This document shows positions 7,955-8,886 of a stretch of DNA of 32,000 bases, piece by piece. How positions within the stretch are numbered: position 1 is the stretch's first letter; each line of letters starts with the position of its first letter. The notes under the pieces are model-generated. The model saw only the letters and a program-made list of their open reading frames with translations. It was not told the origin of the DNA and ran no database searches. Origin of the DNA: Candidatus Heimdallarchaeota archaeon. GTDB lineage: Archaea; Asgardarchaeota; Heimdallarchaeia; JABLTI01. The stretch lies in contig JAUWKS010000035.1 of assembly GCA_030614005.1 (NCBI GenBank), forward strand, positions 818-32,817. The letters are read 5' to 3'. The position numbers were made by a program, and so were the translations under genes.

Positions 7955-8192
7955 CTGGAGTTGGACCAAATATGGGTTCGTAACCTATATACCTGATCAA
8001 TTACTAAATTGATAATTGTCTATCTCAGCACTAGACCTTGCTGGGTTTGTAGCCTTGATAGGTTAAATCCATTACCGAGCGCAAGCTGGTTAATGATGAT
8101 ATAGATTTAGAAAAATAAATGATAATTGTAAACATTTCTTGACTTAAAAAAGTCAAAAAGCGGTGGCTCATAACCGCGCTAACCAACTCCAG
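7955..8192 (+). ncRNA. Unidentified ~240-nt structured RNA (5' leader or co-transcribed ncRNA)
   Basis: CTGGAGTTGG (7955-7964) is the exact reverse complement of CCAACTCCAG (8183-8192). It encloses hairpins at 7970-7990, 7996-8013, 8020-8061, 8064-8109 (GCAA tetraloop), 8117-8137, 8139-8156 and 8160-8177. Confidence 0.7.
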
Positions 8193-8211
8193 CCAATTAT
8201 ACTCAATAGAG

Positions 8212-8886
8212 ATGGTGATAAAATTGAAAAAAACATTAGGAGACGCATTTGCACTTCGTAAAAAAATAGATAATGAACTGAATACCTGGATAAATCGATT
8301 AACATTAGCAAGTAAAAACACAGTACACTATAAGACAAAAGCAATTGAAGGAGATAAGAAATTCCAATCAATACCAGGTACTAAGAAAACTTACACAAGA
8401 AATTATACTATTGAAGAATGCCGAGAAAGAATTCAAAAGCTTATTGCTGAAGATCAAAAACTTGCATTGCAAATTTCCTTAACAAACCAAAAGGCAAAAG
8501 CTACGGTAGTAGACCTAGATGGAAAAGAACAAGAATTAACTATTCCTGAATTACTTGTTCTTCGAAATGAAATTGCTCCAAAAGTTGAACGTGCTGCACG
8601 AGCAATACCAATTAGAGCTTCTGGTGTTGAGATTGTTGAGGATGGAAAAGATAAGATAGAATTCCGAGTAATAAAAACAAACTATGTCAACAAGCAAACA
8701 ATGAGCGAGAAAGGCAATGTGTTAACAAATAAGATCATTGAGGATTTCAATATAGAAGAAGTTATAGACTATGGATTAAAACAAAGAGAAGTCTTTGATT
8801 ATATAGATGAAATTCATTCCTGGATGTTTCGAATCAAAGAAGCAATAAACATGGCAAATAAGACAGAATTAGAAGAATTAAAATAA
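8212..8886 (+). CDS. Helical/coiled-coil protein, DIP1984/septicolysin-like family (tentative)
   Basis: 224 aa. N-terminal LGDAFALRKKIDNEL, central KLALQISLTNQ and LTIPELLVLR, and C-terminal IKEAINMANKTELEEL follow the helical layout recalled for DIP1984-type proteins. Confidence 0.55.
   Translation: MVIKLKKTLGDAFALRKKIDNELNTWINRLTLASKNTVHYKTKAIEGDKKFQSIPGTKKTYTRNYTIEECRERIQKLIAEDQKLALQISLTNQKAKATVVDLDGKEQELTIPELLVLRNEIAPKVERAARAIPIRASGVEIVEDGKDKIEFRVIKTNYVNKQTMSEKGNVLTNKIIEDFNIEEVIDYGLKQREVFDYIDEIHSWMFRIKEAINMANKTELEELK

Follow-up and report, generated by a model that had tools for sequence, protein, structure and literature searches.

TRAP and HutP of Bacillus are homo-oligomers around which RNA is wrapped, with one nucleotide triplet for each subunit: TRAP reads 11 G/UAG repeats in the trp leader, and HutP reads UAG-N4-UAG-N4-UAG, with a period of 7 nt, in hut mRNA. 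Regularly spaced triplets are a hallmark of RNAs bound by homo-oligomers of this kind. A different association is that of Ro60 (Rsr) with Y RNA or YrlA, an end-paired, structured non-coding RNA (ncRNA) that is encoded beside the gene of its partner and is spread patchily across distant lineages. To our knowledge, few large structured ncRNAs have a protein partner of their own, and apart from those of the translation and secretion machinery, hardly any occurs in both archaea and bacteria. In this work, we analyse a 32,000-nt stretch of DNA from a Candidatus Heimdallarchaeota archaeon (contig JAUWKS010000035.1; hereafter the window), in which a structured RNA encoded at 7955–8192 lies directly upstream of a protein gene (open reading frame, ORF, 8212–8886).

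The RNA belongs to a family of structured RNAs, 185–250 nt in length, that has not been described before. On balance, we favour the interpretation that RNA and protein form a dedicated ribonucleoprotein particle (RNP) and that, in this window, the RNA doubles as 5′ leader of the protein's mRNA. The features of the locus are listed in Table 1.

Structure and conservation of the RNA in Asgard archaea

The ends of the RNA form a perfect closing helix of 10 bp, P1 (CTGGAGTTGG/CCAACTCCAG). The plus strand of 7955–8192 folds with a minimum free energy (MFE) of −72.6 kcal/mol, compared with −45.4±4.3 kcal/mol for 200 dinucleotide-preserving shuffles, none of which folded as well (z=−6.34); the complementary strand folds less strongly (z=−4.74). 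An initial annotation, made from the sequence of the window, had described the closing helix, a GC content of approximately 37% and about seven enclosed stems. The helix is present, perfect and covarying, the computed GC content is 0.37, and the MFE fold recovers most of the annotated hairpins. Among the checks proposed at that time, the folding z-score against shuffles was significant, the Rfam scan gave no match at gathering or permissive thresholds, and both conservation and covariation were found upstream of homologous genes, as detailed below.

Rfam 15 yielded no matches at gathering thresholds in the 32-kb window, nor in eight Asgard and bacterial loci, and a permissive scan of 7850–8300 returned only noise (E≥0.4, scores far under threshold). 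Within that noise, a C-box-like AUGAUGA at 8091–8097 gave rise to sub-threshold rows for C/D small nucleolar RNAs (E 0.4–5; ~8088–8155); this candidate was rejected, as AUGAUGA is not conserved in locus L071 and the match is probably due to chance. A nucleotide BLAST with the RNA across 59 relatives produced short AT-rich noise only, and the searched literature contained nothing on the protein family or on an RNA of this type. The RNA-encoding DNA is single-copy in the source genome (3.6 Mb, 90%-complete). On the minus strand, a 96-codon ORF with a GTG start (8031–8321) overlaps the RNA and shows no sign of being a gene.

The same RNA was found upstream of the three closest homologues of the protein gene, in loci L069, L070 and L071 (89, 92 and 70% protein identity, respectively), and L071 carries compensatory changes in the closing helix and in three hairpins. 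With a covariance model of these four RNAs including that of the window (R1), weaker hits over the full length were obtained immediately upstream of more remote homologues. When long-range helices were sought, a 10-bp closing helix of free sequence appeared in nearly every Asgard locus, followed by A-Y-C-R-A-A-K and preceded by GA-N-R-A, and a second model, built from the 5′ halves of Asgard RNAs (R2), picked up the remaining members. Taken together, the RNA lies directly upstream of homologues of ORF 8212–8886 in all Asgard loci with enough flanking sequence. In one locus (L011, from a genome labelled Helarchaeota), two tandem copies of the RNA (4440–4631 and 4761–4959) precede a single protein gene; R2 matched the two copies with E-values of 4e-8 and 2e-15, and the bacterial model R3 described below also matched the first.

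We determined pair counts in 12 non-redundant Asgard RNAs and compared each element with 500 shuffles. None of the shuffles equalled the observed pairing of P1 (92% paired, double changes in 10/10 pairs), of a pseudoknot (93%, 6/6 pairs covarying), of the 3′ hairpin (91%, double changes in 3/6 pairs) or of the inner hairpin (85%, 3/5 pairs), in a test that ignores phylogeny and overstates significance for related sequences. The pseudoknot, which the initial annotation did not list, was revealed by RNAalifold and joins AUGGGU at 7972–7977 with GCUCAU at 8166–8171, in the loop of the 3′ hairpin; in relatives, the two strands read UGAAGG/CCUUCA, AGUAAG/CUUACU or AUGAGU/ACUCAU. In P1 and the pseudoknot, G-U pairs exceed A-C mismatches approximately fourfold (~20 to 5), which favours an RNA of the plus strand. 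RNAalifold found almost no local structure in the 5′ half alone, in agreement with a 5′ half that pairs mainly with the 3′ half.

Of the annotated stems, the TCAGCA/TGCTGG and GCGGT/ACCGC hairpins covary and the others are mostly lineage-specific. The first hairpin (ATATGGGTT/AACCTATAT) is 51–60% paired across Asgard relatives, which is the level of shuffled sequences; it uses the bases of the 5′ pseudoknot strand and represents a lineage-specific alternative. The hairpin described as capped by a GNRA loop is already broken in L071, in which the protein is 70% identical, and the CTATC/GATAG stem is not kept across Asgard relatives. Two further candidate helices, UUAGG/CCUAA and GUCUA/UGGAC, were unsupported by pair counts in the Asgard RNAs.

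Upstream of the closing helix lies the TATA-like TTAAATAA (7925–7932), placed, as had been noted, for a transcription start at the helix. Nearly all of 22 Asgard loci have a box of the TTTAAATA type at a distance of 22–30 nt upstream of the closing helix, and by its sequence and position the element at 7918–7932 would function as promoter. The layout of the 22 loci comprises P1, (C)ACC, 15–60 nt without a T-run, and GGUG 5–10 nt before the start codon. The TATA box before P1 and the lack of a T-run before the ORF suggest that, in Asgard archaea, the transcript of the gene begins with the RNA, which would also serve as 5′ leader of the protein's mRNA. The ATG that had been annotated 19 nt after the helix is present at 8212, but the likely start codon is the TTG at 8227: GGTGA at 8214–8218 is located 8 nt before this TTG, and the resulting MKKTLGD matches the N-terminus of the family (M-x-x-TLGD).

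Table 1. Features of the RNA–protein locus in the window
Feature	Position	Strand	Remarks
Putative promoter AAAAGGTTAAATAA, B recognition element (BRE)/TATA-like	7918–7932	+	Fits a start at ~7952–7956; identical in L069 and L070; AAAAGATTATATA in L071
Structured RNA, 238 nt	7955–8192	+	Fold z-score; no Rfam match; covariance-model matches upstream of homologous genes
P1, 5′ arm	7955–7964	+	Pairs with 8183–8192; sequence free, pairing kept in all relatives
Junction ACCAAAU	7965–7971	+	Family consensus A-Y-C-R-A-A-K; C, A and A invariant in 21 Asgard RNAs
Pseudoknot, 5′ strand AUGGGU	7972–7977	+	Pairs with 8166–8171; 6 pairs covary
GGUUCGUAA motif with first conserved GUA (7980–7982)	7975–7983	+	G26, U27 and A28 (near-)invariant in Asgard RNAs
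GUCUAUC motif	8018–8024	+	Kept in Asgard (GUCUAYC) and bacterial RNAs
Inner hairpin UCAGCA ... UGCUGG	8025–8044	+	Covaries in Asgard archaea and bacteria
Second conserved GUA (UUUGUAG)	8049–8051	+	G, U and A invariant in 21 Asgard RNAs; bacterial counterpart GUYGUA
Third conserved GUA (AUUGUAAAC)	8128–8130	+	Conserved ...GUAU... block in Asgard alignments
3′ hairpin GCGGU-GGCUCAUA-ACCGC	8160–8177	+	Loop bases 8166–8171 form the pseudoknot, complementary to 7972–7977
P1, 3′ arm	8183–8192	+	Pairs with 7955–7964
Linker to gene	8193–8226	+	No T-run terminator; Shine-Dalgarno-like GGTGA at 8214–8218
Partner protein gene	8212–8886	+	224 aa from ATG 8212; more likely 219 aa from TTG 8227

Bacterial RNAs and triplet periodicity

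In a scan for a helix combined with the junction motif, a 12-bp closing helix with ACCRAAG after it appeared immediately downstream of actinobacterial genes for the partner protein. The order of elements in the bacterial RNAs is that of the Asgard RNAs: closing helix, junction (ACCRAAG or CUGCCGAAG), a pseudoknot strand ending in the GG of GGUUCGUAA, GUCUAUC, a covarying hairpin (e.g. CUCGAGA/UCUCGAG, CAGAG/CUCUG), GUYGUA and the 3′ hairpin. The nonamer GGUUCGUAA is identical in RNAs from Actinobacteria and Myxococcota. The loop of the bacterial 3′ hairpin and the pseudoknot strand can be matched as GAUGGU/ACCAUC, GACGGU/ACCGUC and AAUGGU/ACCAUU; an automated test of this pseudoknot gave 68% (own) vs 44% (cross) and was too permissive to be informative.

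A covariance model of bacterial 5′ halves, which contains no archaeal sequence (R3), matched an RNA in 45 of 48 bacterial genome loci and in 48 metagenome loci, beside the 3′ end of the gene; the exception is L023, with the RNA ~1.6 kb from the gene. The RNA is encoded on the strand of the gene in Actinobacteria and some others, and on the opposite, convergent strand in 14 genome and 11 metagenome loci, mostly of Myxococcota. A 5′-untranslated position therefore holds in the Asgard loci but fails in bacteria. R3 also matched Asgard RNAs, with matches that begin precisely where the closing helix begins (E 4e-4, 5e-4, 0.0019, 0.006 and 0.007), and the RNA of this window at E 0.046, again starting exactly at the helix. 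Conversely, the Asgard model R2 matched the downstream RNAs of three low-GC loci (L110, L138 and L154) with E-values of 1e-6 to 1e-8. From these sequence comparisons we conclude that the Asgard and bacterial RNAs are homologous. In three Myxococcota loci (L059, L093 and L132), a U-rich run directly follows the 3′ arm of the GC-rich closing helix, and the long-range helix may double there as terminator of the RNA.

Outside the conserved helices, the bacterial RNAs consist of heptads of the form NNNG(U/C)AN. An example is L059, with CCGGUAG CGGGUAG GCGGUAG and so on; L146 shows the same pattern with GCA. The autocorrelation of G[UC]A peaks at a lag of 7 nt (z 22.5 in bacteria and 10.6 in Asgard archaea), with echoes at lags 14 and 21. 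Bacterial RNAs contain up to about a dozen G(U/C)A triplets, and the RNA of this window has three canonical GUA triplets (Table 1), each conserved in the family.

The partner protein and its linkage to the RNA

In a large protein collection, 154 relatives of the partner protein were found. Those from Asgard metagenome-assembled genomes are 55–92% identical, and those from Nocardiopsis, Streptomonospora, Myxococcota and other bacteria 45–50%; 41 columns are invariant across the Asgard and bacterial sequences. The family N-terminus and the spacing of GGTGA indicate the TTG at 8227 as probable true start. The product of ORF 8212–8886 had no match in Pfam, NCBIfam, PADLOC or PHROGs, and a sequence search of the PDB gave nothing useful. 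The designation 'DIP1984-like' of the initial annotation is unsupported, as the corresponding hidden Markov model (NF038048) remained without a match across the entire genome at E≤10, and Pfam and NCBIfam gave none. A DUF6847 cluster, reached by a language-model search at a similarity of 0.81, below the 0.9 line, is a lead rather than a test. Two bacterial homologues narrowly exceed the gathering threshold (27 bits) of PF25283 (DUF7873), with 27.2 bits for P0077 and 27.9 bits for P0086, and several relatives carry a precomputed DUF7873 tag; the protein of the window itself had no hit at E≤10. The protein is probably a distant branch of the DUF7873 superfamily, judging from these sequence matches.

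The AlphaFold model (pLDDT 87.8) shows four long helices interleaved with a beta sheet. Foldseek found no match in the PDB at E≤0.001, the best lead being human Rogdi (probability 0.80, TM 0.31). A search of AFDB clusters retrieved uncharacterized proteins only, and a wide fold search with VIA-align retrieved generic helical hairpins only (Z≤9), within the noise for helical models. Complex prediction with four copies scored 0.56, compared with 0.00 for the best of three controls; this mark was attained by 20 of 30 solved homo-pairs and by 1 of 23 single chains, in a two-copy calibration whose counts are only rough. Contacts agreed between runs by at least 93%, with a partner pLDDT of at least 80, and the interface is symmetric (residues 23–45, 63–93, 110–134 and 178–189). 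The partner protein is thus predicted to self-associate.

RNA and protein gene occur together. Among 151 genomes of the Asgard phylum, the RNA model and the protein profile matched the same six (G000, G048, G076, G086, G159 and G174), each with one copy of the RNA adjacent to the protein gene; the only additional RNA match (G176) was weak and located inside a 316-aa ORF. Of 121 genomes of one actinobacterial family, 10 had both RNA and protein, and one had a partial protein match only. Five bacterial genomes of 6–10 Mb contained exactly one RNA copy each. The pair was found in Asgard archaea, Actinobacteria, Myxococcota, Planctomycetota and Armatimonadota, and several cultured actinomycetes are carriers, including Nocardiopsis, Streptomonospora and Murinocardiopsis. 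Closely related carriers are not independent; the pair nevertheless turns up repeatedly, in at least four lineages of Asgard archaea and in several phyla of bacteria, with three gene arrangements. Clustering of ORFs over 55 loci revealed no third gene shared beyond close relatives.

Several observations concern the state and surroundings of the pair. The protein gene is broken beside a normally scoring RNA in one Asgard genome (G159:C612:1762-2632; L167/L168) and in one actinobacterial genome (G289:C183:4462-4844); one of these genes has a frameshift and stops, the other an internal deletion. A low-GC contig of 75.9 kb (IMGVR_UViG_3300027917_000038; L169/L110), viral according to its IMG/VR listing, carries the RNA downstream of the gene, and a protein atlas also lists look-alike clusters in which Uroviricota dominate. 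In the window, a gene for an RHH_8 (ribbon-helix-helix) protein at 7100–7555 is situated between a block of TetR, ArsR and unknown genes and the RNA. It is missing at that place in the closest relative L069, in which the upstream genes are otherwise syntenic. The downstream neighbours differ, with a TPR protein in the window and a FAD-binding protein in L069.

Interpretation and comparison with known systems

The initial annotation had offered two readings, a large cis-regulatory leader and a discrete ncRNA forming a complex with the protein encoded next to it. The comparative data favour the ncRNA with its protein over a pure leader: the RNA is found before, after or opposite the protein gene in different lineages, which indicates that it is more than a leader. 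At this locus, both roles would hold. We propose that an oligomer of the protein reads the G(U/C)A triplets, one per subunit. Between the elements of P1 and the pseudoknot lie one conserved hairpin and mostly single-stranded, triplet-bearing stretches, and closing helix and pseudoknot would keep the RNA closed around the oligomer, resulting in a defined particle. In this Asgard genome, the RNA would be transcribed from the TATA box at 7925–7932 as the leader of the mRNA for its partner. As the RNA is the mRNA leader in this window, binding of the protein could feed back on synthesis, so that the protein might sense or limit its own production. Fold, covariation, homology to the bacterial RNAs, strict genetic linkage and triplet periodicity are demonstrated by the sequence analysis; we infer transcription, physical binding, stoichiometry, feedback and cellular role.

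Several points weigh against this proposal. The RNA of the window and several other Asgard members contain just 3–5 canonical G(U/C)A triplets, so that the picture of a wrapped oligomer derives mainly from the bacterial members. The predicted protein interface is that of a symmetric pair and not of a ring, and in the fold searches described above the protein resembled no known RNA-binding protein. The Asgard-only model R2 missed the high-GC bacterial RNAs, and the shuffle tests, as stated, do not account for phylogeny.

In the main variant of our proposal, the RNA might neutralize or titrate the protein, as an RNA antitoxin of type III or as a sponge in the manner of CsrB and CsrA, which would be an antagonistic special case of binding. 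A two-gene module without conserved neighbours, its patchy occurrence (6/151 Asgard and 10/121 actinobacterial genomes), the cross-domain protein identity of 45–50%, which suggests horizontal transfer, the carrier contig in IMG/VR and the repeated short motifs as candidate binding sites are all consistent with this idea, as is the retention of the RNA in G289 and G159, where the protein gene is broken. The latter finding, however, also runs contrary to addiction to an unstable antitoxin. Moreover, neither a defence or toxin model of PADLOC nor PHROGs matched, no nuclease motif was recognized in the protein, and the RNA is not a tandem array of units of ~36 nt. We regard antagonism as unlikely, albeit with an appreciable chance. 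A smaller chance is given to a purely cis-acting 5′ leader, that is, a riboswitch or autoregulatory operator, with the bacterial elements being unrelated or secondary. Such a leader would fit the location of the RNA between TATA box and ORF, without a terminator, in all Asgard loci, and its conserved junction bases and pseudoknotted fold resemble those of riboswitch aptamers. Base pairing between the conserved (C)ACC after P1 and the GGUG ribosome-binding site would be possible, and the 5′ strand of the pseudoknot can pair locally in this lineage, which would allow a switch. The homologous RNAs downstream of the gene (Actinobacteria) or on the opposite strand (many Myxococcota) are nevertheless unable to lead that gene, and no metabolic gene context hints at a ligand.

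Alternatively, the RNA could be the main functional molecule, a ribozyme or a scaffold for other targets, and the protein its chaperone or processing factor. The RNA is intact where the protein gene is broken (G159 and G289), it is tandemly duplicated in L011, and its pseudoknotted fold is complex and conserved. On the other hand, the protein is very strongly constrained, with 41 columns invariant between the domains, ribozymes seldom contain long single-stranded arrays of triplets, and none of the 272 genomes searched contained the RNA only; we consider this explanation improbable, slightly more so than a pure leader. A DNA element, such as an inverted repeat for recombination or replication, or a chance fold of an AT-rich spacer is nearly excluded. 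The perfect 10-bp inverted repeat that brackets the element and the good folding of the minus strand (z=−4.74) would be expected of it, but the frequent G-U and rare A-C oppositions denote strand-specific pairing, the pseudoknot covaries, the covariance models match one strand only, and the single-copy element has neither target duplications nor a transposase.

The dedicated RNP, which we prefer to these alternatives, would have wider implications. By analogy, the patchy, transfer-prone two-gene pattern fits that of accessory modules, e.g. for defence or toxin-antitoxin functions. We tentatively suggest, as a broader possibility that we hold with less confidence than the particle itself, a new class of RNPs in Asgard archaea and at least four bacterial phyla, in which a closed RNA of ~200 nt encircles, or is coated by, an oligomer of novel fold via triplets spaced 7 nt apart, and which moves between domains as a self-contained cassette, possibly as an RNA-guarded defence or addiction module. 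The two components, with clear candidate binding sites in the RNA and a confidently folding protein, constitute a testable system that would bring a new RNA family, assign a function to a DUF-type protein and open one of the few routes to the RNA biology of Asgard archaea.

Among described systems, TRAP and HutP are similar in the regular spacing of triplets, here G(U/C)A every 7 nt, and in a protein that is predicted to self-associate. The protein fold is unrelated, however, and the triplet is G(U/C)A and not NAG. The RNA is in addition closed and pseudoknotted, with conserved hairpins of its own, and in bacteria it is encoded by a separate gene instead of forming a leader. Ro60 and Y RNA share with our pair a closing stem formed by paired ends, the adjoining partner gene and the patchy spread. 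In contrast to Ro60, the 220-aa protein has no Pfam hit and neither a TROVE nor a vWA domain; no Y RNA of Rfam matched, and the heptad triplets and the pseudoknot are foreign to Y RNA. By analogy, CsrA with CsrB or RsmZ is comparable as a small protein of which several copies bind to one ncRNA with many copies of a short motif. In Csr RNAs, however, the GGA motifs occupy hairpin loops at no fixed distance from one another, the genes of the Csr system are unlinked, and a CsrA-like protein is lacking here.

Type III toxin-antitoxin systems (ToxIN, CptIN and TenpIN) are likewise patchy, mobile modules of RNA and protein, with the RNA upstream as in the Asgard loci. They differ in their tandem repeats of 34–36 nt, in place of which our RNA has one non-repetitive fold with triplets spaced by 7 nt. 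The ToxN/AbiQ, CptN and TenpN models of PADLOC, like its other defence and toxin models, did not match three members of the protein family (E≤1). No terminator separates RNA and gene here, and the bacterial RNAs are downstream or antisense. Finally, the initial annotation had pointed to a retron-like geometry. Inverted repeats of the a1/a2 type that close an RNA beside an ORF, as in the msr-msd of retrons, are indeed present in the form of the 10-bp helix. The analogy nonetheless fails for want of a reverse transcriptase (RT): the adjacent 220-aa protein has no RT domain, no RT was found in ~150 loci, and no retron of Rfam matched.

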